DNA of 64,000 bases from Candidatus Latescibacterota bacterium. Lineage in GTDB: Bacteria; Latescibacterota; UBA2968. The position numbers were made by a program, and so were the translations under genes. Positions within the stretch are counted from its first letter, which is position 1; the number at the start of each line of letters is the position of its first letter. Below the pieces are notes generated by a model, which was not told the origin of the DNA, ran no database searches, and worked only from the letters and a program-made list of their open reading frames with translations. This document shows positions 6,816 through 61,302 of the stretch, in pieces. The stretch covers positions 2,336,001-2,400,000 of the forward strand of contig OZ220741.1 of the NCBI GenBank assembly GCA_965116885.1. The letters are read 5' to 3'.

Positions 6816-6840
6816 GCCCTATCTGAACAGGAAGTGAACA

Positions 6841-10276: not shown

Positions 10277-10485
10277 GAGTACTCCGGTGGAATTAGTTGG
10301 TCTCATTGTGCGCTATAGAGTTTCTTTAATATATTGAGAAACGCATCTTGTGTCTAACCAAAGAATGTGGGCACAAGATAGCTGATTGTTTCTCATTTCT
10401 TGCGTCTTGTGTCTCTCTTTTGTAATATCTCCACTGACCAGACGCATGATACTATAATACAGGCTTTTTACTTTGGAGGAATACG

Positions 10486-11523: not shown

Positions 11524-11639
11524 GAGAAGTGTGAAGTAGGAAGTGTGGAACGATGTACAATTGGTCGCATTCCAGACCAATTCACTGTGAAGAAGCACCC
11601 GCCATCTGCGTCCATCTGCGGATGCTTTTGGAGAATTAT

Positions 11640-12434: not shown

Positions 12435-12435
12435 T

Positions 12436-13233: not shown

Positions 13234-13323
13234 TTCTTTACAATGAAACTTTATCGCGGAGCGTTTTGTCTTTGTATTTAGTGAAATTAAGACCTCTATA
13301 GCTCCAAATAACAGGATTGTGCG

Positions 13324-15895: not shown

Positions 15896-15902
15896 TGTTT
15901 TT

Positions 15903-16841: not shown

Positions 16842-16930
16842 GGGGAGGCCTTTCGTGAGGGTCGGAGATTGGGAAAAGGATTGTTATATATACGACAATT
16901 TTTTTGAAATTCAAATTGTCCTGAAGGAGG

Positions 16931-18196: not shown

Positions 18197-18198
18197 AG

Positions 18199-19746: not shown

Positions 19747-19797
19747 TTCGTGCAGGGACGGCCATTTGCACACATATTCTAATTCTGGAGGAGACGC

Positions 19798-40696: not shown

Positions 40697-42649
40697 TTAC
40701 CATCCGTGTACAAAGTGTCCACTTCCGGGAAACCAGATCGCATCCACGACACTCGACGCTCCCACGCCCAACAGGTATCCCACTACTATTCCATAGGAAA
40801 ATGGCATCGATCGCCGGTAAAGTCCCACGCCCCCAAATTTGAGGGTCAGTGCTTTGACGAGCCATACGACAAAAATAGCGAATCCGTACGTATGACTCGG
40901 GAAGGCGAGTCCCACCGGGTGAATCGGCCAGGAAGCGAACCGGGTATTCAAGACTGTCAGCAGGCCCGCTTCTCCGACTCCGAATAGCCAGACCAGCAGT
41001 TTCTGAAAATCAAAATATGTGGGTTCTGTCCCCTCAATGATGCCTACTTGTCCCAGCATTACAGTCCAGTCGTACATATAGGCCGCGTTTAGACCGCCTT
41101 CTGTATAACACAAATAAAGCTGGGCACCGCAGGCTATGGCATAGGCGGTGAGCAGAGAGATGGGCAGAGCACATACGACCAGAAAACGGCGTTTCAGGGC
41201 TTGTTGCAATAGCCGAAAAAAATGTGGAATGGCCGGTATCGACAGCATTCGTCCCGAATGCGCGGCCAATCCGCCGCGGTTTAACACCATTATCCCCGTC
41301 AGGTCGGAGGGGGAAAAATTGGCTGTTCCCAGAAGCGTCTTGAGTATCGGTCCACCTTTCTGCCCCTGGGGTGATAGAAATACGAATCCCGTGGCTGCCG
41401 CGTATTTGGCCACGCCAAAGTAGATCACGAAAAACAGTGAAAGCTGTAGCAGTGCCGCGACGGGTCGCATGTCCAGAGATATCATCCAGCCTGTGAGAAA
41501 TGCAAATGCCGCGCTGAATCCCAGCCAGGCCGTGCGGTAGGTCACGGGCGTTCCATCGTCTTTGCTCCGGTCGTCTGATAATGCCTTTTGCAGGGTTTCT
41601 TTCAGGTGTCCTCTGGCTACCCAGACCGACCAGATCACGAGAAAGACCAGTGCGCCGTGCGCCTCAAGCATCCGAATTTCTCCCGAGGTTGCCGCCTGCC
41701 CCTGCATGCCCACTGTAAATCCCGTTCGGTCCATCAGTGCTTGTTTGAAAATATTGAGTACAAAAAAGGTCCACACGCTCAGCAGTATATTTAGCGGACA
41801 CAGGTAAGCCAATCCCATCAAAAGGGGCTGAATCCTCAGGTATAAGGTCGGAAAATCGCGCCCGATGTGTACGGCTTTGGTCAAATAGTGATCGTATATC
41901 CCAATGCGCGGAATTGTGAGAATAAAATACCCGGCAATATTCCAGAAAATCACACCGGCTGTACACGCAAAGCCCATCCAGAAAACGGGTGTTCGGAACA
42001 CGATGGGCAGTCGGTGTGAAGGTTCTTCCCGGAGCAGTTCCAGGGGCATTGTCGCCAGGGGAAATGTCAACCGTTCCCGTTCCACCCACTGTTTGTAGAA
42101 CAACACACTTGCAAAAAAGCCGGCCATTACGAGTGCTACAGTTCCGGCAAACCACCAGAACAGCGGGGTTAGCCAGTTGCGCCACGGGATGGATTCCTCT
42201 GATCCCAGTCCTACGTACAGCTTTTCTACTACCATATCTCCCGGCTCAAAAAATAGCCAGCGGGGCATATAGGCCCCCACGACCTCCCAGAATCGGTTTT
42301 CCGGTGAAGAAAAAGCGGATGGTGCTGAAATATCCGTAATCAAGTACCCGGCCCAGCCCACTGCCGGTGCGGTACCCACCATCCAGACCATTCCAAAAAT
42401 CACCATCACTTCTGTGCGCGACAGGGCAAAGCGAGGCAAAATGAGCTTTAAAACTGTGTTGATCCCCACCCACAACACCAGTGGTAGCAACGCGGTGACG
42501 GGCACGAAGCTTTTCATCAGATTTCGCCCGAAGTAGGTCGCGTACAAACACATGCCCGCAATTGTGATCAGCCCCAGTACAAAAGCCCGAATGGTGAGCG
42601 ATTCAGATGCTGTTGATGCTTTTCTTTGAGGTTCCGGTGCCGAAGCCAT
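40697..42649 (-). CDS. DUF6785/DUF6784-like polytopic membrane protein (putative transporter)
   Basis: RAFVLGL, QWVERERLTFPL, WPIHPVG, KFGG..LYRR..PF..G; many hydrophobic segments. Confidence 0.7.
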   Translation of the reverse strand: MASAPEPQRKASTASESLTIRAFVLGLITIAGMCLYATYFGRNLMKSFVPVTALLPLVLWVGINTVLKLILPRFALSRTEVMVIFGMVWMVGTAPAVGWAGYLITDISAPSAFSSPENRFWEVVGAYMPRWLFFEPGDMVVEKLYVGLGSEESIPWRNWLTPLFWWFAGTVALVMAGFFASVLFYKQWVERERLTFPLATMPLELLREEPSHRLPIVFRTPVFWMGFACTAGVIFWNIAGYFILTIPRIGIYDHYLTKAVHIGRDFPTLYLRIQPLLMGLAYLCPLNILLSVWTFFVLNIFKQALMDRTGFTVGMQGQAATSGEIRMLEAHGALVFLVIWSVWVARGHLKETLQKALSDDRSKDDGTPVTYRTAWLGFSAAFAFLTGWMISLDMRPVAALLQLSLFFVIYFGVAKYAAATGFVFLSPQGQKGGPILKTLLGTANFSPSDLTGIMVLNRGGLAAHSGRMLSIPAIPHFFRLLQQALKRRFLVVCALPISLLTAYAIACGAQLYLCYTEGGLNAAYMYDWTVMLGQVGIIEGTEPTYFDFQKLLVWLFGVGEAGLLTVLNTRFASWPIHPVGLAFPSHTYGFAIFVVWLVKALTLKFGGVGLYRRSMPFSYGIVVGYLLGVGASSVVDAIWFPGSGHFVHGW

Positions 42650-45046: not shown

Positions 45047-45047
45047 G

Positions 45048-45710
45048 TCAGACCATCCGTCCATCTGCGAGTTTTATCTGGCGGTCTGCTCGATTTGCCA
45101 GATTCAGGTTGTGCGTGGATAGCACGATTGTCACTCCTTCGGTGTGGTTCATATTTCGCAATAATGCCAAAATTTCATTTCCTCGTTTTGAATCCAGGTT
45201 GCCAGTTGGCTCATCTGCGAGCAAGATCTCGGGGTTGTTTACGAGTGCGCGCGCAATGGCTACCCGTTGCTGTTCGCCTCCCGATAGTTCTCGGGGCAGG
45301 TGATCTGATCGGTGCTGCAAATCCACGCGTGCCAGCAAGTCTCTTACCCGATTGCGTTGATGCAGGGCGCGGGAAAAGAGGAGGGGGAGTGCCACATTTT
45401 CTTCGACGGTCAATGTGGGTACCAGGCAATAGTCTTGAAATACGAAGCCCACGTGTTGCCGACGCATGGTTTCCAGGTCTTTGCCGCGCAAAGTACTCAC
45501 GTCTCGATCCAGCAATTTCAAGAGGCCCGATGTGGGGCGGTCCAGACACCCCAGAAGGTTTAACAGGGTTGTTTTTCCCGCGCCCGACGCGCCTGTGATG
45601 GCTACAAATTCGCCGGGTTCTACGATCAGGTCTATACCGGATAACGCCGCGATTTCTTCGGCTGAACGGCGGTATATGCGGGTGAGTCCCTGTGCGAGAA
45701 TAGCCGACAT
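45048..45710 (-). CDS. ABC transporter ATP-binding protein (LolD/MacB type)
   Basis: GASGAGKTT, LSGGEQQRVAIARAL, LADEPTGNLD. Confidence 0.93.
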   Translation of the reverse strand: MSAILAQGLTRIYRRSAEEIAALSGIDLIVEPGEFVAITGASGAGKTTLLNLLGCLDRPTSGLLKLLDRDVSTLRGKDLETMRRQHVGFVFQDYCLVPTLTVEENVALPLLFSRALHQRNRVRDLLARVDLQHRSDHLPRELSGGEQQRVAIARALVNNPEILLADEPTGNLDSKRGNEILALLRNMNHTEGVTIVLSTHNLNLANRADRQIKLADGRMV

Positions 45711-46881: not shown

Positions 46882-47276
46882 ATCTTTGTCCTTTTGCGAT
46901 GGATTTCTACGCCTTTTCCCATCAGGCGCAGATCGCCTGCGATGCGTTTTACGACGCCTACGACGCGCAGGGAGTCGCCAGAGATATTGCGGGGGACGGT
47001 TATGGTCCGTCCCTGTTCCAGGTCAATCAGTATATGTTGCGTGCTGTCTTGTAGTACGAACCAGCATCCCATGTGCTGGCATACCTGTCCCACGCGGCCC
47101 GATAGCACGACTCGCTGGTCGAGAAATGCGGCTGGACGATCCTGGATTTCTTTGATCCGGGTCGCGCGATTGGCGGGTACGGCTTCGCCCACTTGATGTA
47201 TTTTCGCGGAATCGCATCCGATTATCAGGATTAGTATTATCAGGTATATCTTCAGTTTTTGCGTGACGTCTGCCAT
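46860..47276 (-). CDS. Small OB-fold-like lipoprotein (DUF4920-like)
   Basis: Lipobox IIGC; V.L.GRV.QVCQHMGCWF motif. Confidence 0.65.
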   Translation of the reverse strand: MADVTQKLKIYLIILILIIGCDSAKIHQVGEAVPANRATRIKEIQDRPAAFLDQRVVLSGRVGQVCQHMGCWFVLQDSTQHILIDLEQGRTITVPRNISGDSLRVVGVVKRIAGDLRLMGKGVEIHRKRTKIWSFFNL

Positions 47277-47343
47277 AAGAGATGATATTTTGTTTGTGGG
47301 ATAAAATCAAGGGATTCTCCCATCTGTTTTCTGTGACGGGAAT

Positions 47344-49182
47344 ATGCCGATGAAAAAAATGATATGGGTTCTTATAGCCGGTGCCTGTCTGGCGTGCAAG
47401 CCCTCTCAACCCGATGTCTCCACGGAGTTTGTCGGCGTACATCGCTGTGTGGGTTGCCACATGGAAGCGTATCAAAAGTGGCAGCGCACGACCCATGCGA
47501 CCTCTATGCAAGAAGCGACGCCACAGACTGTTAAGGGCGATTTCACAAAAAATAACGCTTATACTTTTGGCGGTGTTACCTCGACGATGAGCCTTCAAAA
47601 TGGTCGCTATTTTATTACGACGCCGGGGGCCGATGGGGCGCAAGGTACTCACGAGGTGCTATACACGATTGGCGACCGGGATACGCAGTGGTACATCGCT
47701 GAGCTTCCCGGAGGCCATTTGCAGATTCTTCCGGTTTATTTCGATGTTCGCAGAAATACCTGGTACAATCCCGTTGAAGGTATTATTGCCTCGCCGTCCG
47801 AACGGCCTTTAGATCCTGGCGATATCTCGTTCTGGATGCATTTTGGGCGCAATTGGAGCGCGCAGTGTTTTGACTGCCACGCCAGTCAGATTGCGGTCAA
47901 TTACGATCCCGATGCGGGTACTTATGATTCCCGCTGGGTAGATTTGAGTATCAATTGCGAGACCTGCCACGGTCCCGGGCAGGGCCATGTCGCGTTTTGG
48001 GAGAGAGCGCTGACAGATGCCGATGCTGCCGGTATGCAGGATACTTCGCTGGTGAATTTGAGAACGCTTTCCTCAGAACAATCCGTAGAGCTTTGCGCGC
48101 AGTGCCACGCGACGAAGCGCATTTTGAAACTGGGCTATCGGCCCGGCGACAATTTTTACGATTTTTACGAACCTGTTGTTCTGGATTTTGAAGGTATGTG
48201 GCCGGATGGTCGCTACCGACATCTCGCGTATAATTATACGGCGCTCACGCTCAGCCCCTGTTATACAGAGGGCGGGGTGACGTGTTTGACGTGTCATCCG
48301 TCTCATGGTCCGGAGGTGAAAAAGAAGACAAGGGCAGATTTCGACGGTATATGTATGCAGTGTCATCGGGATATAAAGCCACGCGAACACAGCCGCCACG
48401 AGCAGTACATCGCCTGTGTAGATTGCCATATGCCCCCGATTCCAGAAGTGCGCCGGGTGCGCGTGTTTGATCACCGCATTGCATCCCCAGTTCCGGCGAA
48501 TACGGTGCGTTTTGGCATTCCAAATGCCTGCGGTGAATGCCACGGGGACCGCACGCCCGAATGGGCTGTGGAAAAGACAGAAGCCTGGTGGGGGAAACAG
48601 GATGATTATCTTTTGCAAACGGCGGCTGTTGCACTGGGGCGACAGGGCAATCCGATGGCTGTGTCTCCTCTGAAAGACGAGTTGCTCGATCTGTCCAATA
48701 ATCCCACGCGGCGGGCTTCTGCTGCTTTGCTGCTGGGACGTACCCGATCCTCGCAGGCTGTTTCTGCGCTCCTCAACGCTTTGAAAGATCCGCATCCGCT
48801 CATCCGCGCAAAGGCGGTAGAAGGTCTGGGCCTCATCGGTCAGGCGCGGGTTGTGCCCGCGCTGGTTCCATTGTTAGATGATCCGGTTCGGCTCGTGCGG
48901 TTTGCCCTCGTGCCAGCTATTGAAAATCTGGGTGCATACCATCTCACGGGCCAGGACTACGAGCGCTATGAGGCCATTTTTGCCGAGTACGAGCAGGCGA
49001 GCAAAGAGGTTTGGGCGACTGATCCTTATGTGCATGCGTTTCTCGGATGGGCTTATGTGAGGCGGGGGAATACGGAATTGGCCCAGCGCGCTTTCCAGCG
49101 GGCGTTGCGGATTTGGCCCGGTATTGAGGACGCGGCCAGAGGACTGGCGCAGATACATAACGCAGAAAAAAACGACCGATGA
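47344..49182 (+). CDS. Octaheme c-type cytochrome lipoprotein fused to HEAT and TPR repeats
   Basis: Eight CXXCH motifs: CVGCH, CFDCH, CETCH, CAQCH, CLTCH, CMQCH, CVDCH, CGECH; C-terminal HEAT/TPR; lipobox-like CLAC. Confidence 0.9.
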   Translation: MPMKKMIWVLIAGACLACKPSQPDVSTEFVGVHRCVGCHMEAYQKWQRTTHATSMQEATPQTVKGDFTKNNAYTFGGVTSTMSLQNGRYFITTPGADGAQGTHEVLYTIGDRDTQWYIAELPGGHLQILPVYFDVRRNTWYNPVEGIIASPSERPLDPGDISFWMHFGRNWSAQCFDCHASQIAVNYDPDAGTYDSRWVDLSINCETCHGPGQGHVAFWERALTDADAAGMQDTSLVNLRTLSSEQSVELCAQCHATKRILKLGYRPGDNFYDFYEPVVLDFEGMWPDGRYRHLAYNYTALTLSPCYTEGGVTCLTCHPSHGPEVKKKTRADFDGICMQCHRDIKPREHSRHEQYIACVDCHMPPIPEVRRVRVFDHRIASPVPANTVRFGIPNACGECHGDRTPEWAVEKTEAWWGKQDDYLLQTAAVALGRQGNPMAVSPLKDELLDLSNNPTRRASAALLLGRTRSSQAVSALLNALKDPHPLIRAKAVEGLGLIGQARVVPALVPLLDDPVRLVRFALVPAIENLGAYHLTGQDYERYEAIFAEYEQASKEVWATDPYVHAFLGWAYVRRGNTELAQRAFQRALRIWPGIEDAARGLAQIHNAEKNDR

Positions 49183-49211
49183 GTAGAAAAACCCACCGGT
49201 CGTTTTTTTTT
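49166..49211. terminator. Bidirectional intrinsic terminator between convergent genes
   Basis: A7-CGACCG...CGGTCG-T9. Confidence 0.8.
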
Positions 49212-49226
49212 ATTTTGGAACGTCCA

Positions 49227-50240
49227 TTAGAACGATCCGGTTATGGATACGCGCAGGGGCGGATCAAATAAATGGCCGAAACTTATATATGCAAAATCGA
49301 CGCCGATCTTCCGTCCCACGCCCAGATCCTTTTGGACGCCGCCGCCGAGTGTCCAGGTGCCCAGGTCGTAACGCCCCCGGTAACCGGCTCGCAGTGCCAG
49401 CGTGTTGGCTACCCACAATTCGCCGCCCACATGCCAGCGCTCGCGGTCGTCAATGTGGTGTACGAGTTCGGCTGCTACGGTTAGATATGTGGGGTCTCCC
49501 TTGCGCCCATAAGGCTCCATTGCCAGAGCGATGGTGTAGATCAAGGGCTGGGCAATCGAAGTGCCCTGTGGGAGAGAACCGGGAATCACGAGTTCCTGGT
49601 CTTTGCCGAAGTTGCGAAGCGTCATGGCCAGGCGCGAACTGCCAAATCCGGTGTAAAAAACACTGGAAAAATCAAACGAGGCACTGTTGATCTTGTCCTG
49701 GTCTAATGTCTCTTGAATCCACTTTACAGACGCACCCAGCGACAATTTATCGGTCATCTTGTACGCATAACCGAAGTTTATAAAAATATCGCCGGCCGAT
49801 ATATCCCGCGTGAAGCGCCCTTGCGGATCCAGAGGCGTGGTCTCTCGGGAGGTGCCAGCGTCAAACTGAATGACCGACAGCCCAAAGGTCTGTTGGCCGT
49901 ATCGCCAGGCGACCGCACCGTTGAAAAATTTCGAATCTACCATCCAGCGCGTATATCCCAGGGCATATTCGAATCGCTCAATGTGGGTCAATGCCGCCGT
50001 GTTCCAGAACATCGCATTGATGTCGTCGGCTGCGGCTGTAAACGCATCGCCCATTGCGGCTGCCCGCGCGCTCTGCCCCACCTTCAATGCGTGGAACGAA
50101 GCTCGCCCGGTTCCGTGGAACTCTTTTGTTCGGTGCTGACCCGCGCGCACGCCGGACGGCAACTGATAATTTTGTGCCCAGGCGTCTGACCCCAAAAGCC
50201 CGACGGCCAGGAGCATCGTATAAATAGTTAATCGTTTCAC
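49227..50240 (-). CDS. PorV/PorQ-like (UPF0164) outer-membrane beta-barrel
   Basis: Signal peptide; ARAAAMGDAFTAAADDINAMFWNTAAL, LALRAGY, C-terminal Phe. Confidence 0.85.
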   Translation of the reverse strand: MKRLTIYTMLLAVGLLGSDAWAQNYQLPSGVRAGQHRTKEFHGTGRASFHALKVGQSARAAAMGDAFTAAADDINAMFWNTAALTHIERFEYALGYTRWMVDSKFFNGAVAWRYGQQTFGLSVIQFDAGTSRETTPLDPQGRFTRDISAGDIFINFGYAYKMTDKLSLGASVKWIQETLDQDKINSASFDFSSVFYTGFGSSRLAMTLRNFGKDQELVIPGSLPQGTSIAQPLIYTIALAMEPYGRKGDPTYLTVAAELVHHIDDRERWHVGGELWVANTLALRAGYRGRYDLGTWTLGGGVQKDLGVGRKIGVDFAYISFGHLFDPPLRVSITGSF

Positions 50241-50264
50241 ATCTACTCTCCTTTGTGTGTAGAA

Positions 50265-50290
50265 GGGCGGAACAGAGTGCCCGCCCCTCC
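50265..50290 (-). repeat. REP-like palindrome (GGAG variant)
   Basis: Minus strand GGAG-GGGCGG-GCACTCTGTT-CCGCCC, related to the 25998 element. Confidence 0.6.
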
Positions 50291-50298
50291 CGTCGGTC

Positions 50299-52797
50299 TT
50301 ACTGGATAATCAGAAAACTGCCCGTTTGAACCTTGCCTTCTTGTCCGGGTACCAGCGATTCTACGGCGAAGAAGTAAATCCCCGGAGACGCATACGACGT
50401 GCCAGAACGCGCCCGTTGAGACCAGCTCACTTCTGCCGTGTGCTGCGCGCCGCGCGTCCCATCGTGTACTATTTCCATAACCAGGTCTCCCGCAGCCGTG
50501 AAAATCGAGATGCGGGCCAGACGCGGCAGGTTGGTAAACCGCATGCGCTTGTTGTTGTCGCCCTGTGCGCCAAAGGAATGCATTCCGTCGTCCTTCCACG
50601 GATTTGGCACCACGAGCACTTTTTCTTCGAGAGCGTCGAATCCGTCTGAGGCTGCCACAACAGGCGTAAACTGACCGCCGCTTGTATTGTGCCGCGCGGC
50701 CGTCACTATATGGCTGGACTCGGTTCCCTCACGGATGTGGTTTTGAACCACGGGGGGCAGATCTGCAAGTGTTGTCGGGACGGGCATTTGCGCGCCTGGA
50801 ATCGCATTTTTCTGCGCATTCATGTTCTCCCAGTTCGCGTGCCCATTGGCATAGGTTACGATATTGTACCGATACCCAAATCCCGTAACAGAGTTTTCAT
50901 CGGCAAAAGTATAAAGCCCGGTTGATGAATCGTAATAACTCGGGTCCTTGGCCTGAATTGTGGCGATCAGATTCCACGGGCCTGAAGGCGCGCCAGCATG
51001 CTGCACGGGATCCGTCTGGATCAGCGCCGTGTTCCCGTAAATTTTGTAACCGGCGACATCCTGCGCCTCGCCGCCAGAATAATCCGGGTGTACCGCATCG
51101 TCGGCACCATCGCTCCAGGACAGTTCCACGTTCCCATTTGCATTGCTGCGAAGCAAAACAGCGCGGTCGGTTTCGGCGCGAGAAATTGATTCCACATCTG
51201 GCGGTTGATTGGGCAGGTCAAACCCCATTGCGTACAATTGACGCGCGCGATCGATGTGGTTGAACAAAATATCCTCACCGCCGGGTACCTGCCCCTGCGC
51301 GCCTGGCGTCATTGCCCACAGCCGAAAGTCCATCGGCTCACCACCCGGACCCGCATTTTCGGCGGCCATACCCGCGGCAAAAACCACCACGATTTTTGCC
51401 TTGTCGCCCGGTGCCAATTTCCAGGGACCGAACATTTGCGAGTGCAGTTGTTCCTGCAATTCTCGCTCATCGGGATTTGGGCCACCTTCAACCGGGTTGT
51501 CGTCATAGGGCTTGCCCGGGGTGATGAATTTCTTCCACAACTCTTCAACCGTATCAATTGTCTCATGCGGCTCAAACTCGATATTCGTACGGCTTCGGCG
51601 TTTCCACCAGTGCGCATACGCAGGCTGACTGTTGGGAATATCCTCGCCTCCCATCGCCGTACCCGTAATCGGCACATAGTCTTCCGGGTCGTTGATAAAG
51701 GGCGGTGTCACATCTACAGGTCCCCAGCCTATGTATTGCGGCGAATACAATTCTTGCTCTGCTCGATACCCGATCACGCCAATGGCTTCGGCGCCGAACC
51801 GGGGTTCGCCCATGTCGTTATTTGAACTGGTAGGCGCATCGCCATCGTATTGATACGATACCTTCTTACCGCGGTATTTCCCACCGTAATTGGCGGACTC
51901 GGTAAACTGATACCGGTCGTCTTCCAGCCGACGCCCCGGTTCGGAAAACCAGTAGCCGTTCCACTTGCGATAGGAGTGCCCGGGTTTGTTCACGCTGAAA
52001 TAGTTCAAGTACCCCATATACACTTCTTCATAGGACCTGTCTGAGGTATTCTCTACGACCAGTTCTACAAAAAAGAAATCGTCGTAATCCGGATGGCTCC
52101 ATCCATACGCTGTCCGCGTCATTGTCATGCCGGTCCCATCTGGCTCGATATTCGTGTTGCTGCGCCATCTCGTAATCACGGTTTCTTCTGGAAAGTGATC
52201 GAACTGGGGCAGCGTATATGACCCGTTCTCGCGGTAGTTATCCACTTCCACAGGCTCGTCGGAAATCGGCTTGGATTGCTCGGTAATCCCGCCGCGGTCC
52301 GTGTTGAACCACACGTTGGCGTCCTGGGTGTCAAATCCCAGTCGGGCGGCTACGATCGGCGGATCTTGCCCGTTTCGCAAGCGCATATTGCCCGATCCAG
52401 GCGTCAGGTCTGGAACTACCTGCTCCACATCTCCAGTGTTCGACACTGGTCCCGAGGATGTGACATAGGTATTTCCATTCGCATCCCGCGCGAGTATCCA
52501 CACCCCCTGGCCCTTCGAGTTGTCGTAGTCCTGGTCTCGACCGCCGAAACTGCCCGATGTCGAAGATCCCGTATAAATATACGGATATGTCATGGAAGCG
52601 TTTTCCCGCGCCACATATCCTTCCGACCCCAGGGCAAATGTCCCGCCCTGCTGTCCTGTGTTGCGAAACGATTCCGACAGCTTTGACCGGTCAATCTGTT
52701 TCATTGGCACTGGCTCATCCACCGCCTGAACCCCTGTCACAAATAGTCCAGTCAGAAAAATGCCCGCAAGCGCCTTACCAATCATTTGTCTAAACAT
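50299..52797 (-). CDS. Secreted protein with a T9SS-type C-terminal sorting (FlgD-Ig-like) domain
   Basis: Signal peptide; FN3-like segment (VELSW...VAGYKIY); C-terminal VVPNP...FTNLP..ARISIFTAAGDLV...W...SPGIYFFAV...GSFLIIQ. Confidence 0.78.
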   Translation of the reverse strand: MFRQMIGKALAGIFLTGLFVTGVQAVDEPVPMKQIDRSKLSESFRNTGQQGGTFALGSEGYVARENASMTYPYIYTGSSTSGSFGGRDQDYDNSKGQGVWILARDANGNTYVTSSGPVSNTGDVEQVVPDLTPGSGNMRLRNGQDPPIVAARLGFDTQDANVWFNTDRGGITEQSKPISDEPVEVDNYRENGSYTLPQFDHFPEETVITRWRSNTNIEPDGTGMTMTRTAYGWSHPDYDDFFFVELVVENTSDRSYEEVYMGYLNYFSVNKPGHSYRKWNGYWFSEPGRRLEDDRYQFTESANYGGKYRGKKVSYQYDGDAPTSSNNDMGEPRFGAEAIGVIGYRAEQELYSPQYIGWGPVDVTPPFINDPEDYVPITGTAMGGEDIPNSQPAYAHWWKRRSRTNIEFEPHETIDTVEELWKKFITPGKPYDDNPVEGGPNPDERELQEQLHSQMFGPWKLAPGDKAKIVVVFAAGMAAENAGPGGEPMDFRLWAMTPGAQGQVPGGEDILFNHIDRARQLYAMGFDLPNQPPDVESISRAETDRAVLLRSNANGNVELSWSDGADDAVHPDYSGGEAQDVAGYKIYGNTALIQTDPVQHAGAPSGPWNLIATIQAKDPSYYDSSTGLYTFADENSVTGFGYRYNIVTYANGHANWENMNAQKNAIPGAQMPVPTTLADLPPVVQNHIREGTESSHIVTAARHNTSGGQFTPVVAASDGFDALEEKVLVVPNPWKDDGMHSFGAQGDNNKRMRFTNLPRLARISIFTAAGDLVMEIVHDGTRGAQHTAEVSWSQRARSGTSYASPGIYFFAVESLVPGQEGKVQTGSFLIIQ

Positions 52798-52822
52798 AAA
52801 TTCACTCCTTATAGAGGCGCCA

Positions 52823-52854
52823 GGATCGGGGAACCTGTTCTGATTCCCCGATCC
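52823..52854. other. Intercistronic 11-bp-stem hairpin
   Basis: GGATCGGGGAA-10 nt-TTCCCCGATCC between the TBDR and cargo genes; no U-tract. Confidence 0.75.
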
Positions 52855-52860
52855 ACCGGT

Positions 52861-55800
52861 TTACATGCTCGTGCGCACGCCGAAATAGATCTCGCGGGTG
52901 CGATTCGTGTAGCTGTTCCACTGATCCCAGATCTGGTTGTTGTCCCGCACCACCACTGGCGTGGGCTGGTTCTCAGCCAGACCATACTTCGGTATGTCGT
53001 GGAAGAAATTCCACCTGCGGATCGAACGCGGCTTTTTGGCGTTGAACAAATTGGTCGCCTCAAAGAACACGGTCGGACGCAATTTCCCGATCCGGAAGCC
53101 CTTCTGAATGCCCAGATCCGTGCGGAATGCCGTTGGGTTGGTGAACAGCAGCTGGTTCCTGATCAGCTTGTTGGCCGTCGAGGGAGATGGCGTGGGCTGG
53201 CTATAGCGGAAGAATGTGCCCGGTTCGATTCGCAGCACCAGGTTCACGTTCAAATCGCTCAGCACCTTGCTCCCGCCCACCTCTGGACCATAGCCTTCGG
53301 GCGTGGCAAACAAAAATGTGATGCTTCCATCGCCCGTGGCATCGCGCATGTTGGCAGGACCGCGCACACCTCCTATTGTGTGTATACGAGCCGCAATATT
53401 CCGCTCGTCAGTCCAGGGGAATCCAACCTGTGCATCCGGCACCTGATTGGCGAATTTTTCGGTGATCCACAATTCCCGGTTGGCGTCGATTTCCTGCTGC
53501 ACCAGCTGGTCGGCAAACATGCCAATAGCATTGACCTCGGCACTCGACAGGGGTTGCCAGACGCGCTCACCCGTAGTCTGGTCGATTGCAAACTTGAAGC
53601 GATACGCATCTTTGGCCAGGAAGTCCGAATCCACGAACCAGCGCCCCACCCACTCCCGACCACCGTAGAAGTTGTTCTGCTCCCAGTACCAACTCCACGT
53701 CGCGCGGAAAGAGAAGAAATTGGTGAATCGCTTGCTCACAGCCAATTCCAGGCCGCGCGTTTCACCGCTGTACGCGTTCTGATACCAGTGTGCGCGCTTG
53801 ATCTGCTTCTCTACCGGATCGTGCAAAAACGTGTTGTTCTGCTGGAGATAGTCTTCTGTGCGGCGGTAGAACATCGTCGCATTGGCCGTGTAGTCCGAAA
53901 CAAAGTTCCAATCGACACCCACTTCGTAGTTCACCGTGCTGCCCGGGCGCGAATTCGTCGATCCGCGCTTGGTCGAGCCCATTTCCAGGCCGCCGTAATA
54001 CTCATACGAGCTATATCTGCCGTCTGCGTTCAGGTCTTCGGCTATGCTTCGGCCCGAAGCCGCCTGCCAGGTCTGCCCATACATCGCATAGAAAATCGGG
54101 AGGACGAAGAACCGGCCGTATGAGAAGTGAATCGCAGACCGCGCGGTAATCGGGTGAGATACCCCAAAGCGCGGCGACAGTTTGAACATATTTAGACCAT
54201 CATAAGTGGGGAATGACTGCGGATTGTTGGGATAGGGCGTTTGACCCTGCCGCGCCAACGACGCATCTGCATCGGCAAACCAGCGGTTTTGAGGCAGCAC
54301 CGACCACACGGGTTCGGGACGCGTCTGACCGCCGTGGTCAAACGCATCCAGACGCACGCCCACGTTTACGACCATCCCCTCAAATTCCATTTTGTCCTGT
54401 GCATAAGCTCCAAGCTGGAATGCCCCTCTCGGATAATCCCGGAAGGCGTTCCAGGCAGGGTCGTCGAGATTGCCAGCCCCTCTTAAATCGGGGAGTTTAA
54501 CGCCGTTCACAGTCGTGGCGGGCACAAAGTCCATCTGACCATCTGCACCCAACCGGTTCTGAGCCGATGCATAGTAGTCGTACATCGTCCAGACCCGATA
54601 ACTGCCCGATGTTCCACGGCTCTGTGATTCCCACTGGTAGGTCCGGAACCAGGTTGCTTCGGCTCCTGCCTTAAAGAAATTTCCCTTTGTTACCTGACTG
54701 GAGAAATCGAATTTCAAATTGTGGCGCGTTTGACGATTCAATCGGTAGTCCCGAACCTCACGAGGTGTTGCCGTAAACCACTTGTCGTGGTCCCGAACCA
54801 CATTGAACGTTTCTATAGGCATCCCCGATGTGTCTTGCTCGCTGTCTGAACGCGAGATACGCAACTCGTACAGGGTGCGGGAAGACAGAGAGTGCGTTAA
54901 ATACGCGTACAACATTGAGTTCCATTCGATCTCTTTGCCCGCACCATCTATGCCTGCGGGCAAATACAGATCTCGACCGGCTGATAATGCCGACTCCCGC
55001 GTGTTGCGGAAATTCTGGTTCGTTCCATACACACCACCCAACTTCAGGTTGATATTGGGCCTTAAGCCAAATGTCAATTTGCCCGTTACCTGATAATTGG
55101 GCAGGCTCCGAAGTGCGGGGTCGGGACGCTGCACGGGTTGACGATCTGTCTGCGCGCTCACGTGGAACGAGGTGTTGTTCCCAATGGGACCCGAAAGGGA
55201 ACCCTCCAGGCGATGCCCCGATACATCTGTGTAATCGTCTGGCTGGATATGTACCAGACGTCCCGAATCATCTGCTGTGCCGGGCAATCCATCGGCACCA
55301 ATATCTTCTTTTTCCTGCAACCAGGCCGGATCGTCCAGGCGGATGCGGCTTCTGCCCGTACCCTGGTTCAGGTGAATGATCGGGTCATAGGCATTGAAGC
55401 CGTAATGCCGCTTTCCGGCAACTGTATATCGATACTCGAAGAATCCGTGGTAGTCTCGGCTACCCTCTCGCGTCACGATATTGATGATCCCGGCGTCCAT
55501 GTTTCCGTATTCGGCTTCTGGAACACCGGTTACTACAGAGATTTCCTGGATTGATGCGCGGTTCACACCCGTGAACATATTTGCCGCGCGGCGGTCATTA
55601 TTCACCATCCGCACACCGTCAACAGTATAGGTGAGTGAAATGGGCTTTGGCGTTGTCGTGTACCAGCCCGCACGGCGTTCGCCTTCGTCCATTTGAAAGT
55701 TGCCCTGCCGCACCGACCGTCCGTCTTTCTGTACGCCCGGTTGCAAGCCCGCCCACGCCCGAGCATCTTTGACCACGGGCTGCAAGTCGATCTCGTCAGC

Positions 55801-56208
55801 CGTTACGTAGTATTTGCTCGCGGTCTTGTCCGGCTCTACGGGTGGACGCTCTGCCGTCACGATCAGTTCTGCGGCTTCCAGTGCTGTCTCGGTGAGCCTG
55901 AAATCCACTGTGGTGGTATAGCCCACCACCACTTTCACATCTTGCTGCACCACCTTCTGGTACCCCACCAGCGAGGCTTCCAAACTGTGCGTTCCCGGCA
56001 GGACCAGCAAGATGATATAATATCCTTCTGCATCTGCTGTCGCCCCCCGGTTTGTTCCCACAATCACGACGTTGGCACCGGGCAAGGGATCGCCTTTGAT
56101 ATCCATTACCCTGCCAGCTATTTTACCCGTTGTTGCCGCCTGTGCCCAATCCTGGATACCCAGGAAACAGACCAGCAAAACGGACAAAAATGCTAACTTT
56201 CTTATCAT
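52861..56208 (-). CDS. TonB-dependent receptor with an N-terminal carboxypeptidase-regulatory-like domain
   Basis: TGKIAGRV, LPGANVVI, VTAERP, YTVDGV, IQEISVVTG..AEYGN, GIINIVTREG, SPRFGVSHPIT, NLFN, REIYFGV. Confidence 0.92.
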   Translation of the reverse strand: MIRKLAFLSVLLVCFLGIQDWAQAATTGKIAGRVMDIKGDPLPGANVVIVGTNRGATADAEGYYIILLVLPGTHSLEASLVGYQKVVQQDVKVVVGYTTTVDFRLTETALEAAELIVTAERPPVEPDKTASKYYVTADEIDLQPVVKDARAWAGLQPGVQKDGRSVRQGNFQMDEGERRAGWYTTTPKPISLTYTVDGVRMVNNDRRAANMFTGVNRASIQEISVVTGVPEAEYGNMDAGIINIVTREGSRDYHGFFEYRYTVAGKRHYGFNAYDPIIHLNQGTGRSRIRLDDPAWLQEKEDIGADGLPGTADDSGRLVHIQPDDYTDVSGHRLEGSLSGPIGNNTSFHVSAQTDRQPVQRPDPALRSLPNYQVTGKLTFGLRPNINLKLGGVYGTNQNFRNTRESALSAGRDLYLPAGIDGAGKEIEWNSMLYAYLTHSLSSRTLYELRISRSDSEQDTSGMPIETFNVVRDHDKWFTATPREVRDYRLNRQTRHNLKFDFSSQVTKGNFFKAGAEATWFRTYQWESQSRGTSGSYRVWTMYDYYASAQNRLGADGQMDFVPATTVNGVKLPDLRGAGNLDDPAWNAFRDYPRGAFQLGAYAQDKMEFEGMVVNVGVRLDAFDHGGQTRPEPVWSVLPQNRWFADADASLARQGQTPYPNNPQSFPTYDGLNMFKLSPRFGVSHPITARSAIHFSYGRFFVLPIFYAMYGQTWQAASGRSIAEDLNADGRYSSYEYYGGLEMGSTKRGSTNSRPGSTVNYEVGVDWNFVSDYTANATMFYRRTEDYLQQNNTFLHDPVEKQIKRAHWYQNAYSGETRGLELAVSKRFTNFFSFRATWSWYWEQNNFYGGREWVGRWFVDSDFLAKDAYRFKFAIDQTTGERVWQPLSSAEVNAIGMFADQLVQQEIDANRELWITEKFANQVPDAQVGFPWTDERNIAARIHTIGGVRGPANMRDATGDGSITFLFATPEGYGPEVGGSKVLSDLNVNLVLRIEPGTFFRYSQPTPSPSTANKLIRNQLLFTNPTAFRTDLGIQKGFRIGKLRPTVFFEATNLFNAKKPRSIRRWNFFHDIPKYGLAENQPTPVVVRDNNQIWDQWNSYTNRTREIYFGVRTSM

Positions 56209-56235
56209 CTTTATGCCTCCTTATATAAAGAGTTA

Positions 56236-56985
56236 TTACATCACGTAGTACTTGACTGAAAGTCCGATCTCGAAATAGTGCAGCGGAAAGGTCCGCGCAA
56301 CGCCATAAGATTCCAGCTGACGCAATTCCCCGATCAGCAGGTTCCACCGCGCCCGCGCATCAACTGCTGCGCGACTACCTGCCAATACCTCCACACCCAA
56401 ACCCACGTTGAGCCCCCACGCCACATCCGTATCGTCAAACGGCGCCAGTTCCAATGTCGGATCGATCCCCCCGCCCAGGTTCGGTTGTCCTGCAAAGATC
56501 AGGCCCGATACCGAATTTTTGTAGTGGTAAAATCCACCGCCATAGGTGATGAAGGGACTGCCGATCACGCTGTCTGATCCACCCGTGCGCCCCCTGAGGT
56601 GATACAAGCCGTTGATCGTAAACGCATTGACGGTCATGTAATTGCGCGCCAGCGGGCTTGTGATTTTCTGCCACTCCTCCGGCTTGTCTTCGGGCCAGTA
56701 AAAAGTCGCTTCTTGAATTTTGCCGGGATCAAAGCGCGTGCGGTGATATTCTACCTCCAGGGTATTGCGCGCATCCCGCGCATAGGTGAAATACAGCCCG
56801 AATGCTTCCTGTGCGTGAAAGCGGTTCTTCATCCCGAATACGGGAAAGTTGAAGTTACCGCTCAAGCCCAGGCCAACTTTTCCCACCACGCCCGTGTCCT
56901 GCCCATGGGCATCGCCATGGCTATTGCCTGGAAGCGCGAAAAACATCAAACAAATTGCGGAAATTATCCCTCGTTTCATACGCAA
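56236..56985 (-). CDS. Small outer-membrane beta-barrel (OmpA/OmpW-like)
   Basis: Signal peptide; SPFITYGGGFY, WGLNVGLGVE, C-terminal IGLSVKYY. Confidence 0.75.
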   Translation of the reverse strand: MRMKRGIISAICLMFFALPGNSHGDAHGQDTGVVGKVGLGLSGNFNFPVFGMKNRFHAQEAFGLYFTYARDARNTLEVEYHRTRFDPGKIQEATFYWPEDKPEEWQKITSPLARNYMTVNAFTINGLYHLRGRTGGSDSVIGSPFITYGGGFYHYKNSVSGLIFAGQPNLGGGIDPTLELAPFDDTDVAWGLNVGLGVEVLAGSRAAVDARARWNLLIGELRQLESYGVARTFPLHYFEIGLSVKYYVM

Positions 56986-57369
56986 CCCTCCTTGTGACGC
57001 CCACTCAATGCGAGTGGGGTTAATTGCTAAGAAACACTATCTATTTTTATAGCTAATAAAAGTAAAACTTAAAAATAATAATGACAATTGTGATAATGGT
57101 AAGTATTAGCTTACTAAAATTTAAAACGCTTGTACTCAGATGTCAAGCGGTTTTGATACAAAAAATTCTGCCATTTGGCAGAATTGGGAATTAGTATAGA
57201 TATATACACTTATAAAAAAACGTTTATATCTGCTTATGATTATTAGTATCAACACTTCGGACGATAGCGGATAGCGTCCGTATATTTCTGTAAAATGAGG
57301 TGCGCCCCATTCTTTGACCCGGTATAAAGGCTAATGAACGGGGCTGAACATCGCCCCGTTTTACCCCGC

Positions 57370-57397
57370 TTGACATTGGGTGTCAGCGTGGTATTTT
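57370..57397 (+). promoter_or_regulatory. Sigma70-like promoter for the transposase
   Basis: TTGACA, 16 bp spacer, TATTTT with a TG extension; RBS AGGAGG follows. Confidence 0.55.
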
Positions 57398-57419
57398 CTC
57401 ACCAACAGGAGGATCTACC

Positions 57420-57704
57420 ATGGGTAAGAAAACCAAGAAGTCCTACTCCGCTAAACTTAAGTTCCAGATCGTGTTAGAGGCATTGACCTCAGACAAAGAA
57501 GATGCAGAATTCGCGCGTGCTTACGATGTGTATCCGGTGAGTCTATCAAACTGGAAGCGTCAGTTTATAGACAACGGTGCACAGATTTTCTCTGGCAATG
57601 ATACGGTCAAAACGTATGAAGCGCGTGTGTCTGATCTGGAGCGGTTGTTAGGTCAGAAAGAAGTAGAACTGGCCTTGCTCAAAAATTTTTTAGGCAACCG
57701 TTGA
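57420..57704 (+). CDS. IS3-family transposase OrfA (HTH)
   Basis: YSAKLKFQIVLE, ARAYDV.P..L.NWKRQF, LLGQKEVELALLKN; A5T6 run at the 3' end. Confidence 0.85.
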   Translation: MGKKTKKSYSAKLKFQIVLEALTSDKEDAEFARAYDVYPVSLSNWKRQFIDNGAQIFSGNDTVKTYEARVSDLERLLGQKEVELALLKNFLGNR

Positions 57705-58232
57705 GCCTGTCAGACCAAGTAGAACTGGTCGAAAAGCATAAGGACAAGTATGGTCTGAATATGTGCTGCCGTGCCTTAGGCTTGTCGAAAGGGACACTTG
57801 CTTATCGTCGCGGTCGGGCCTCTTGTTCGCAGGCAGATACCCAGATAGGCGATATACTGTCTGGACCAGTTACAAAATAACTTGGCCTGTTTGGACAGGA
57901 GACTGTCTGACATCCTCATTCATCACGACCGCGATTCGGTTTATACCTCATACGACTGGTTACATCGTGTGTTGATAACAGAACAGGCAGGGATTTCTTT
58001 TGCGATGAATGGGGCAAAAGATAATCCGTGGATAGAGTCCTTTTGGGGACGTTTCAAAACCGAAAACAAAACTTTGATTATGCACGCAGACTCTTTGACA
58101 GAACTTATCTGTGTGACACAGAAGCAAATGACGTATTACAATCAAGACCGAAGGCATTCTGCTTTGAACTATCGTACGCCACAAGAAGTGGTGCAGGCTA
58201 TTCTTATGAGAAATATCACGGCTGATCCTTAG
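57701..58232 (+). pseudogene. Disrupted IS3 OrfB (integrase-core fragment)
   Basis: -1-frame N-terminal part (YGLNMCCRALGLSKGTLAYRR) stops near 57880; C-terminal part is in another frame (HHDRDSVYT, DNPWIESFWGRFKTE, YYNQDRRHSALNYRTP); the first catalytic Asp region is absent. Confidence 0.82.
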
Positions 58233-58409
58233 CGTAAATTAGCATCCTAACTGGTTCAAATTTTGGGTTACAGATCCCTTTGCAATCCGAGAACTTGGCA
58301 ACGCTTGGCTGGTGTATAGAATTGTATAGTTAATTCTTAATTGCCAGCCTGTCAGGATAACGATAGGCTGGCAATTTCGAGATTTATGAGGTGTGTAAAA
58401 AATAAAAAA

Positions 58410-59384
58410 ATGAGACTTATAGCGATTCTGGTCATAGGTGTTCTATTCTTTTGCAATGCCTTAGATATTTTCTCCGCTCCAGTATCTGAGAATTCAGATT
58501 CTATCAGACCAATATTGACCAAACCATACCAGATCAAACAATTATTGAGCGACTCAGACCGGCGATTCGAGTCAGGCGACTATGAAGGCGCCATCAGTGG
58601 CTATAAAAAAGTGATTGCACTTGATTCTCTCAGTTTTCATGCGTGGTATAATCAAGGAATGGCTTCCATTGCTATTATAAACGATGAACAAGCACTTGCG
58701 TGTTTCACAAAAGCTGTGGCAATTGACCCTGAAAACGCAGCGGCACTTAATGGAAGAGGCACTGCTTATTTTAATTTGAAACTATATCAAAATGCCATCG
58801 AAGATTTTAAGAGGTGTATTGCATTGGATAGTCAACACTATGGCGCACATTATATGTTAGGCCGTGTTTGGAGCCGCCTTGAGAATTTCAAACAGGCTCT
58901 TATTAGCTATCAATTTGCCGCGAGAATAAATGCGGAACCACAAGAACTGTGGTACAATATCGGCTGCGTTCTTTCTAATCTGGGCAGATACAAAGATGCG
59001 ATTGAGCAATTTGATAAAGCCATGCACCTCAATCCCATATATGAGAAATATAAACCTGATGATATTTGGTTGGAAAAAGGCTATGCGCTGCATAAATTAA
59101 AGCAATTTGCCGAAGCTGAAATTTGCTATATAAAAGTACTTGAATTAAATGAAAATCAGGTTAATGAGAATCGAGCGACATCGTATTACAATTTGGCCTG
59201 TATTTATTCTCTCCAAAAATTATGGGAGCAGTCCTTTGCGTCGTTAAAGCAATCTTTGGAACTTGCTCCAAACTATGCTTCAGATGTTCAGAGTGACGAA
59301 GATTTGAAAGGTTTGGTCAACCATCCTATCTACAGCCTTAAAATCAAAGAGCTCGTTGCAAAACATTCTGAAGTAAAAGAATAG
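58410..59384 (+). CDS. Secreted TPR-repeat protein
   Basis: Hydrophobic N-terminus; about 7 TPRs; YYNLACIYSL end motif. Confidence 0.85.
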   Translation: MRLIAILVIGVLFFCNALDIFSAPVSENSDSIRPILTKPYQIKQLLSDSDRRFESGDYEGAISGYKKVIALDSLSFHAWYNQGMASIAIINDEQALACFTKAVAIDPENAAALNGRGTAYFNLKLYQNAIEDFKRCIALDSQHYGAHYMLGRVWSRLENFKQALISYQFAARINAEPQELWYNIGCVLSNLGRYKDAIEQFDKAMHLNPIYEKYKPDDIWLEKGYALHKLKQFAEAEICYIKVLELNENQVNENRATSYYNLACIYSLQKLWEQSFASLKQSLELAPNYASDVQSDEDLKGLVNHPIYSLKIKELVAKHSEVKE

Positions 59385-59394
59385 GAAGTTATTT

Positions 59395-60093
59395 TTGGGT
59401 AAAGTAATTGATTATTTAATTTTTGTGGTGATGGCAGGGTTGGCCGTAAGTATGGGGTATAGTGCGTTTTACGAGCAATTTCTCATTTTAACATCTGAGA
59501 GGCAAGTTTTTGTTACCCTGTCTTACGCGGTTATTTATGGTGGGATTTATATCGCAACGCGTCTTGTTACCAAAGATGAGCGTTTTGAAGATATGATACT
59601 TAAACCCAAAACGACATTACAGAGGGCTGTGCATGACGAGAATCATATATTTTCTATCAAGATATTCTGCATAATGGTTCTGCTATCTGGAATCTGGCTA
59701 AATGGGTGGTCAAGATATACTGATGAGTTTGATTGGGGAGGTGCTCCCTGGTTGCTATTTAGATTTCTTCTGGTGAGTTCAATAGGTTTGGGTATCTTCT
59801 GGGTATTTCTGTCCGTGTTTGTCTATGTAATTTTTCAGTTCTTCCGAGGTATCCAGTTTAGCATAATTTTCAGATTATGTGGGTATGTCTTTATTCATTT
59901 TATTGTTTTCTTTGTTTTAATTAATGCAACGCTTATTTGGCCTACGGGGGGGTATGATTTTTTAGTTGCTCTCTCTCTATTGGTGCCCGTTGATTTCTCC
60001 TGGTTGATATTATCTTTTATTTTTCTACAATTCATCTGGCCAACGGTTTTGATATTGTGGAGTCTGTTTCAACCATTTGAGCTGATTGAATAA
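59395..60093 (+). CDS. Hypothetical polytopic membrane protein
   Basis: About 6 hydrophobic segments; directly follows the TPR gene; TTG start. Confidence 0.65.
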   Translation: MGKVIDYLIFVVMAGLAVSMGYSAFYEQFLILTSERQVFVTLSYAVIYGGIYIATRLVTKDERFEDMILKPKTTLQRAVHDENHIFSIKIFCIMVLLSGIWLNGWSRYTDEFDWGGAPWLLFRFLLVSSIGLGIFWVFLSVFVYVIFQFFRGIQFSIIFRLCGYVFIHFIVFFVLINATLIWPTGGYDFLVALSLLVPVDFSWLILSFIFLQFIWPTVLILWSLFQPFELIE

Positions 60094-60582
60094 GATGGAA
60101 CTATTATTTTATTTTTTTAGTGCTGATTATTGTGGTGTGCATTTCACAAAATCATTCAAAATACGATCCAGATCCGTTTGTAAATCGTTCTAACTCTTGA
60201 TTTGATGTGAAACAAAAATTGCGATGAGTATAGACCAGATATTTCAAGAACTGAATATAAAAGGCGAATTGGTATCTGAGGGTCGGAGTTTTGTTTATGT
60301 GCTGTCCTTATATTGAAAATAAAAAAACTGCCATTCACGATTTTTTATGCAAAAAGTAGAAATATGCGGCACATAATGAGAAATAAGCGTAGTATTTTTT
60401 GAATTGCGATTCCACAAACGATTGTAGTATATTAAATTAAAAGCCGCCAACAAGACCTGGAAAAGTCCCCTGTTAGCGGCGGGTTAGTATCTCAAGCGGA
60501 TAACTTGAGAACACTAAAATCAAAAATAACTACTCGAAGCTCTATTGTCAACCACCGAGATTTGTGGCTTGCTGATTATAAT

Positions 60583-61248: not shown

Positions 61249-61302
61249 AAAATGGATGAGACGATAAGTTAAGCTTTGATCATCCAGGTTGAGGGCAATA
61301 TA

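Follow-up and report, generated by a model that had tools for sequence, protein, structure and literature searches.

In a 64,000-nucleotide stretch of a Latescibacterota genome (hereafter the window), four adjacent genes encode a small outer-membrane protein (OMP), a TonB-dependent receptor, an 832-residue partner protein with a variant C-terminal domain (CTD) of the kind known from type IX secretion systems (T9SS), and an outer-membrane barrel of the PorV/PorQ family. As an entity of the genome this four-gene cassette has good support, and as proposed here it would be a new combination of known principles. In its best-supported reading two such principles appear to be joined, that of a TonB importer with a surface partner encoded next to it, and that of a CTD protein kept by a cognate PorV-like barrel. 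On balance, it is probable that the T9SS exports the partner, that the private barrel keeps it on the cell surface in the way PorQ keeps PorZ, and that it assists the receptor in capturing substrate, which would make the cassette a SusD-less counterpart of SusC/SusD. The genes and their families are clear, their order is conserved, and the variant tail is paired one to one with a PorV-family barrel; that the barrel displays the partner beside the receptor, be it as a lid, a binder or an enzyme, is suggested by this genomic association and by the precedent of PorQ and PorZ.

The genome consists of a single contig of 5.56 Mb and is 98% complete, the window corresponding to contig positions 2336001-2400000, and records that are 90-97% identical over the cassette belong to Candidatus Latescibacterota. 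The initial annotation, made from the window alone, had described four co-oriented genes, and the listing of open reading frames (ORFs) bears this out: the four ORFs follow one another in tandem on the minus strand from 56985 to 49227 (Table 1), with successive gaps of 27, 63 and 58 nucleotides, and the remaining ORFs in this interval are shorter frames overlapping the four genes. Signal peptides, which had been claimed for all four products, are predicted from an n-h-c pattern read by eye at each N-terminus, and a hydropathy scan flagged residues 1-19 of the receptor and 5-23 of the partner.

No Pfam or NCBIfam family, the SusD families included, reaches its cut-off with the partner, which also has no cysteine; the partner is therefore neither a SusD-family protein nor a lipoprotein, as the initial annotation had already argued. 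Its tail follows the pattern PNPF...RF.N.P...I.IF...GDLV...GIYF...F.I.K, which is common to the partner and to the 12 other unique proteins that occupy the middle position of such cassettes in the genome. When these 13 tails were aligned (hhalign) with the genome's own set of 12 canonical CTDs of type A, the probability was 97.4% and the E-value 9.7e-12 over 74 columns, the motifs PNPF, GDLV and G.Y being common to both. Relatives of the partner match existing tail models weakly, namely the PorZ tail in 10/26 (best E 4.2e-4), TIGR04183 in 2/26, Por_Secre_tail (PF18962) in 5/16, and the type B model CHU_C (PF13585) in 17/42 (9/26 plus 8/16, best 1.6e-5), the last being absent from this partner. 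As the curated models match it only weakly, the tail is best placed as a distinct class within the CTD superfamily.

The pairing of this tail class with the barrel is strict. A genome search with a hidden Markov model (HMM) of this class recovers 14 proteins, all 14 of which adjoin a PorV-family barrel, whereas none of 13 canonical-CTD proteins does so; the HMMs of the two tail classes were built from the very sequences that they then classify, and what is informative here is that no variant-tail member is unpaired and that the model transfers to another phylum. This transfer was seen in a separate test in the phylum of a second genome (G121), where each of ten partner matches taken from four genomes has a receptor on one side and a PorV-like barrel on the other. 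The tails of these proteins match the variant-tail HMM, which was trained on the Latescibacterota genome only, at 1e-12 to 1e-28, and neighbouring canonical-CTD proteins in the same loci match the canonical HMM only.

The N-terminal domain of the partner is an orphan. The first ~530 residues have no Pfam or NCBIfam match in any of the 42 family members scanned, a profile of the partner family against the PDB returned a single match at chance level (E 0.77), and the ESM Atlas yielded clusters of hypothetical proteins only, with no named cluster for residues 26-540. We take the middle region to be Ig/FN3-like, a reading from the motif pattern that no model confirms. The N-terminal domain contains acidic residues that are invariant or nearly so (D239, D240, D293, D294, D318, D320, D328 and D370 in the family consensus). 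Among nine aligned paralogs conservation is highest in the tail (40.6%) and lowest in the first 185 residues (25.5%), which fits a common end for anchoring and a head that differs with the substrate. Even divergent middle proteins are homologous to the partner over their full length (hhalign 100%, E 1.6e-82, 633 columns), and the family is large, the number of its cluster representatives being 384 at E<=1e-30, 2,639 at 1e-10 and 6,075 at 1e-3.

The last gene of the cassette encodes a barrel that passes the PorV/PorQ family model NF033709 (149.9 bits, cut-off 90; residues 48-335 aligned to positions 3-324 of the 326 in the model) but falls below the equivalog cut-offs for PorQ (NF033711, 76.2 against 220) and PorV (NF033710, 56.8 against 250). 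When a profile of 23 such barrels was compared with 177,635 PDB sequences, the only match at E<=1 was Flavobacterium johnsoniae PorV (6h3i_F, E 2.1e-22), with no FadL or TodX, and with the single barrel of this cassette PorV was likewise the only PDB relative. Pfam Toluene_X reaches 27.2 bits, below its cut-off of 29.7 and over residues 57-96 only, UPF0164 passes (23.8 bits against 21.4), and a scan of NCBIfam gave no PorP/SprF match at E<=0.1. The description of this protein as PorV-like thus survives the comparison with FadL and Toluene_X that had been proposed as its check. The genome has 17 genes of the PorV family over cut-off, 14 of which are private cassette barrels; the best candidate for PorV itself is a different gene near the origin (contig 5709-6773; 229.5 bits on the family model, 161.4 on the PorV model). 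Five other carrier genomes have between 9 and 36 PorV-like matches each.

The receptor has the N-terminal CarboxypepD_reg domain and the plug of a TonB-dependent transporter, both of which are found in all 20 members of its family that were scanned. A profile of these 20 matches the plugs of CirA, FepA and PirA in the PDB at ~1e-15, as well as the N-terminal domain of the SusC homologue 9hfj. Its barrel is divergent: PF00593 is matched by 4 of the 20 relatives and not by this receptor, and PF25183 (OMP_b-brl_4) by 2 of the 20. The SusC/RagA model TIGR04056 gives 64.6 bits over residues 29-251 only, against a cut-off of 368.25, so that the receptor is not a member of that family; the one true SusC of the genome, which serves as a positive control, scores 536.5 bits. 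Just before the plug, at residues ~115-123, lies a stretch of the type VVAERPP in which V117 and A119 are invariant and P122 nearly so, and which is a candidate TonB box. The genome has 14 TonB_C matches; a 912-residue open frame contains five TonB_C domain matches and a 647-residue frame two, one of them with an in-frame TGA (contig 4862974-4864554 and 4859027-4859755). Two close relatives have a receptor gene that is broken up into a pair of ORFs (L023:3589-6937 and L058:2426-6686), with ~1.1 kb between the pieces in the latter, where a frameshift or an insertion may be responsible.

The small OMP that leads this cassette has no Pfam or NCBIfam match and finds nothing credible in the PDB; among its family, 10 of 15 members match PF13505 (OMP_b-brl, best E 4.1e-9), and seven paralogs lead further cassettes of this genome. 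By hhalign (4.9%) it has no relationship to the PorV-like barrel, and it may be a structural subunit of the complex.

Repetition of the arrangement is what sets it apart from a chance neighbourhood. The order small OMP, receptor, partner, barrel occurs eight times in the genome and the triplet of receptor, partner and barrel, whose counting had been recommended, 13 times, and for this reason the cassette is more than a chance association; there is one further partner-barrel pair. Gaps within the copies are mostly below 110 nucleotides and the paralogs are old, with 20-54% identity. The pair that lacks a receptor of its own (contig 2281567-2285280) is a recent duplicate of the pair at 210087-213797, with which it shares its N- and C-terminal sequences and its scores. 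It follows another triplet at a distance of 1.8 kb, and a gene for a sigma-54 activator occupies the interval.

The arrangement is also kept outside this genome. An alignment of 13 sequences retrieved 56 loci, many of them close kin, from contigs representing one genome per species; the barrel is the next gene in 55, a receptor precedes in 53 and a small OMP is present in 45, and all four exceptions (one for the barrel, three for the receptor) are loci cut at the partner gene. The titles of these records include Latescibacterota, Neomarinimicrobiota/Marinimicrobia and KSB1, and loci from all three keep the order and strand. Synteny of the triplet thus holds within the genome and across phyla, and the suggestion that similar gene orders might occur in other lineages is confirmed by the loci labelled Marinimicrobia and KSB1 and by the phylum of G121. 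At E<=1e-20 members of the partner family occur in 64 of the 121 Latescibacterota genomes sampled, and in 66 of the 81 sampled from the G121 phylum.

The surroundings of the cassettes vary. Other copies in the genome have as neighbours UxuA, PfkB, a sulfatase, MFS_2 and SSF transporters, a beta-helix pectate-lyase-like protein, PhyH dioxygenases and DUF6785 permease-like proteins, and the Marinimicrobia-labelled loci have GDPD, ceramidase-like and phosphatase genes together with small canonical-CTD proteins; the substrates therefore probably differ between lineages. Three loci from marine metagenome-assembled genomes, labelled Marinimicrobia or unlabelled (L059, L051 and L065), have an additional gene, for a canonical Por_Secre_tail protein of ~330 residues, in the interval from small OMP to receptor. 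Their barrel is followed by GDPD, ceramidase-like, SSF or purple-acid-phosphatase genes, and a second partner paralog, which lacks its own barrel, lies ~2.4 kb downstream.

Pairwise distances among receptors, partners and barrels are strongly correlated, with Mantel r of 0.87-0.89 for the 13 triplets and 0.85-0.91 for 20 non-redundant cassettes, which means that duplication and divergence affect the cassette as one unit. Within the set of eight four-gene paralogs, only the correlation of partner with barrel is significant (Mantel r 0.69, p 0.006). Of the co-phylogeny that the initial annotation had proposed to test, the co-divergence of receptor, partner and barrel is borne out, but partial Mantel tests single out no pairing of tail with barrel.

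Sequencing runs labelled as sponge metagenomes contain the cassette stretch, 12 runs containing half or more of its words. Runs of this label include eight RNA-library runs from three studies, whose contigs bridge every gene junction; one of these runs (X14) covers the partner and barrel genes only and another (X19) part of the stretch, the uncovered parts not being interpretable.

As to the export machinery that the partner would need, the genome encodes SprA (633.7 bits, cut-off 200), a PorU-like protein of 1905 residues with a CTD of its own (334.3 bits, below the cut-off of 420) and at least 12 canonical CTD proteins. The genome also has a single classical SusC, followed by a 434-residue protein with a SusD_RagB match of 29.2 bits (contig 395721-399954; L075:3721-7954), so that one SusC/SusD-like pair coexists with 13 PorV-type triplets; the term SusD-less, as used in the initial annotation, is apt for the cassette but not for the genome.

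In the proposed mechanism, all four proteins would cross the inner membrane via Sec, and the partner would then be passed by the T9SS translocon SprA by virtue of its variant CTD. Its tail would stay uncleaved and be captured by the cassette's own PorV/PorQ-family barrel, as in the pairs PorQ-PorZ and PorV-PorU, so that the acidic partner would be kept on the cell surface although it has no lipid anchor. Placed beside the receptor, with which it is presumed to be in contact, the partner would use its variable N-terminal domain to capture substrate, most likely a fragment of a glycan or other organic polymer, might also process it, and would hand it over for import with TonB energy. A permease of the DUF6785/6784 type, or another, would carry the substrate across the inner membrane, and the 13 paralogous cassettes would all differ in the substrate that they serve.

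Several observations weigh against this scheme. HMMs for GldL, GldM and GldN match nothing in the 98% complete genome, in searches run without a positive control and thus of unproven sensitivity, and GldK gives only sub-cut-off matches of the FGE-sulfatase type, the controls being silent here too; with no PorL, PorM or PorN detected, how or whether T9SS export is powered here is in doubt. The search for T9SS components that had been advised therefore recovered SprA and a PorU-like protein, but not PorK, PorL, PorM or PorN. Similarly, the T9SS-type CTD that had been assigned to the partner stands as far as homology to the canonical CTDs of the genome goes, but this partner matches neither TIGR04183 nor PF18962 at E<=0.1, nor any other curated CTD model over cut-off; it also ends in Q, and most of its paralogs end in K or R. 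The partial Mantel tests show no signal between tail and barrel beyond shared cassette history, and since their values are similar for all pairs they are not taken as evidence of contact. Many of the Latescibacterota loci are close kin and not independent, 20 cassettes being non-redundant. The RNA-library contigs are compatible with expression and prove neither transcription nor a single transcript. Finally, a scan of the neighbouring genes for known families found no catabolic gene adjoining this cassette.

SusC/SusD is the textbook model of bacterial polymer import. The cassette resembles it (and RagA/RagB) in having a TonB-dependent transporter of ~1,000-1,100 residues with an N-terminal carboxypeptidase-regulatory-like domain, followed by the gene for a large surface partner, and in occurring as many paralogs per genome, often with permease or sugar-catabolic genes near. 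In contrast to SusC/SusD, its receptor fails the SusC/RagA model, its partner has neither a SusD family match nor a lipid-anchor cysteine, and two barrels, the small OMP and the PorV-like one, are added. By the usual definition the locus is no polysaccharide utilisation locus, since neither a SusC/SusD pair nor a carbohydrate-active enzyme adjoins this cassette, sugar-related genes being found near other copies only.

For the retention of the partner the closest models are in Porphyromonas gingivalis, where PorQ is described as required for the association of PorZ with the outer membrane and PorV as holding PorU (PMC5562754), that is, where a CTD-bearing protein is kept at the surface through an uncleaved tail by a barrel of the PorV/PorQ family (PMC5562754, PMC10202324); the idea that cognate PorV-like barrels shield CTDs from cleavage is put forward in a review (PMC10202324). 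The likeness lies in the cassette barrel passing NF033709 and in the weak matches of partner relatives to the PorZ tail. Unlike the cassette proteins, PorQ-PorZ and PorV-PorU are single-copy housekeeping parts of the secretion machine, whereas this genome has 14 private side-by-side pairs, 13 of which adjoin a TonB-dependent receptor, and the cassette barrel remains below the PorV and PorQ equivalog cut-offs. A second parallel is provided by type B CTD cargo (SprB-SprF, PG1035-PorP), which is reported to be encoded with its own PorP/SprF-like barrel, with a tail thought to be uncleaved and the barrel anchoring the cargo (PMC9143113, PMC10202324). Here too partner and barrel are encoded together, and weak CHU_C matches occur in relatives, but the cassette barrel belongs to the PorV/PorQ and not the PorP/SprF family, this partner has no CHU_C, and the type B pairs include no TonB-dependent receptor. 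No description of the cassette itself was found in a literature search that excluded subscription-only papers and supplements, in keeping with the statement in the initial annotation that no characterisation was known.

The foremost alternative retains the same architecture and makes the partner a surface enzyme, a hydrolase or lyase that cuts the polymer as SusG does, instead of a binding lid. The N-terminal domain is large (~510 residues) with several invariant or nearly invariant acidic residues, and Marinimicrobia-labelled cassettes adjoin GDPD, ceramidase-like and phosphatase genes; yet no catalytic family was matched in the 42 members scanned or in the PDB, the acidic clusters suit the binding of Ca2+ or a ligand equally well, and the gene slot directly after the receptor is that of SusD-type binders. 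An enzymatic partner is thus unlikely, if deserving of serious consideration.

Considerably less probable is a module for surface display or adhesion, attaching the cell to a host or to particles, for instance in sponge tissue, in which the receptor would be merely a co-regulated neighbour. The stretch is found in the sponge-labelled runs, and the partner is large and acidic with a middle region that we take, from its motif pattern, to be Ig-like. Type B CTD adhesins such as SprB are, moreover, described as held by private barrels (PMC9143113). Against this, the receptor is an invariant neighbour wherever the flank suffices and co-diverges with partner and barrel, and the cassette is common in free-living marine lineages, as in the 66 of 81 genomes of the G121 phylum.

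About as improbable is an export or assembly cassette, in which the receptor would work outwards and install the partner on the PorV-like barrel, TonB perhaps replacing the PorLM motor. Oar, a TonB-dependent transporter, is reportedly needed for the secretion of PopC in Myxococcus xanthus, and so ties such a transporter functionally to a secreted protein; PorL, PorM and PorN are undetected in the genome, yet TonB_C matches abound (14), and PF25183 is matched by two members of the receptor family. The Oar system, however, has neither a CTD nor a PorV-like barrel, and import is the simpler reading for the cassette: SprA, the normal translocon for CTD proteins, is present, canonical CTD proteins occur without a private receptor, 13 parallel exporters for 13 paralogs would be less economical than 13 substrate-specific importers, and permease and catabolic genes flank other copies.

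The notion of a plain FadL-type channel that conducts hydrophobic compounds, beside which the partner would be a normal cleaved T9SS substrate and the adjacency of the two mechanistically meaningless, draws on the Toluene_X score near cut-off, the UPF0164 match and the description of PorV itself as a FadL homologue (PMC12578637), but is very improbable in view of the 60 bits by which NF033709 is exceeded, a PDB profile that finds PorV and no FadL or TodX, the strict pairing of tail and barrel (14/14 variant against 0/13 canonical) and the co-divergence of partner and barrel.

If import with a barrel-held partner is correct, several abundant and mostly uncultured phyla, among them sponge-associated Latescibacterota and ocean Marinimicrobia, pair a TonB importer with a partner held by a secretion-system barrel, and naming and testing the large, unnamed partner family would change the annotation of nutrient uptake in these phyla. 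According to a review, T9SS CTD proteins are restricted to Bacteroidota (PMC10202324), and in a 2015 study of Latescibacteria genomes B12 and iron are the only substrates for which TonB import is predicted, SusC and SusD going unmentioned (PMC4454575). A broader proposal, possible rather than probable at present, is that in Latescibacterota, Marinimicrobia, KSB1 and related phyla a private PorV-family barrel, and not lipidation, is the general mount for capture proteins on TonB-dependent importers. The variant tail would then be a third class of T9SS signal, with the meaning 'retain on this barrel', and the cassette the main importer of high-molecular-weight organic matter and the functional equivalent of SusC/SusD; in a bolder extension, TonB-type energy would also drive export or release where PorLM is undetected.

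Table 1. Features of the cassette and its surroundings (coordinates are those of the window).
Feature	Position	Strand	Remarks
Small outer-membrane beta-barrel protein (P0001)	56236..56985	-	249 aa, TTG start, first gene
TonB-dependent receptor (P0002)	52861..56208	-	1115 aa, divergent family
N-terminal carboxypeptidase-regulatory-like domain of receptor	55891..56121	-	aa 30-106; PF13620 CarboxypepD_reg, 67.3 bits
Plug domain of receptor	55489..55824	-	aa 129-240; Plug 26.4 bits, cut-off 23.9
Partner ('cargo') protein (P0003)	50299..52797	-	832 aa, no Cys, pI 4.74
N-terminal orphan domain of partner	51193..52722	-	aa 26-535, ~510 aa, acidic, conserved Asp-rich motifs
Middle region of partner	50803..51192	-	aa 536-665; GYRVYRS...GPW...Y.Y.V motif (family consensus)
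Variant T9SS-type C-terminal domain of partner	50302..50625	-	aa 725-832, ~108 residues
PorV/PorQ-family outer-membrane barrel (P0004)	49227..50240	-	337 aa, GTG start, last gene
Sigma-70-like promoter match	57118..57146	-	TTGACA-17-TAAATT, 10/12; ~130 nt upstream of small-OMP start; consensus match only
DUF6785+DUF6784 polytopic membrane protein, candidate inner-membrane permease	40697..42649	-	family recurs beside cassettes

Upstream of the small OMP gene the sigma-70-like match lies in a promoter-scan region with 14 promoter-like sites, against 7.9 +/- 3.1 in shuffled sequence. A search of Rfam over window positions 47000-60000 returned no riboswitch or other RNA at E<=0.1; uptake of a vitamin or siderophore was set aside on this ground together with the 13 paralogs and the sugar-related neighbours of other copies.

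The candidate permease has 11-12 hydrophobic segments, and in 5 of the 13 triplets (L003, L006, L008, L010 and L011), as in L032, a member of its family is found no more than two genes downstream of the barrel, but as the gene is 6.5 kb away its link to this cassette is weak. It is flanked by two sets of TPR and FG-GAP/ASPIC-UnbV genes (window 37063-40694 and 42668-45064).

The cassette's own neighbours, a multihaem cytochrome, a pair of the ABC exporter type and TPR/FG-GAP proteins, give no clue to the substrate. The cytochrome gene (window 47344-49182, plus strand) is convergent with the cassette and encodes a 612-residue multihaem cytochrome c (Paired_CXXCH and Cytochrome_C7/C552/C554 matches) fused to HEAT repeats; similar cytochrome-HEAT proteins, some with TPR, occur near two other cassettes (L001:16678-19494 and L009:1435-3645). 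On the other side, a fragment of an rve_3 integrase core (window 57882-58232, plus strand) borders a stretch of low GC content at 58000-62000 (0.39-0.41, against ~0.55 elsewhere), which may be an inserted island and has genes for a TPR protein, an unknown 232-residue ORF, a response regulator with an AraC-type helix-turn-helix (60505-61248) and an 845-residue GT28_C+GT4+GT1 fusion (61276-63813). Further away, window positions 2000-20000 have a strong positive GC skew (0.24-0.38 in most 2-kb bins) and mostly plus-strand metabolic genes, including those for a glycogen debranching enzyme, an apiosidase-like glycoside hydrolase and malate synthase.

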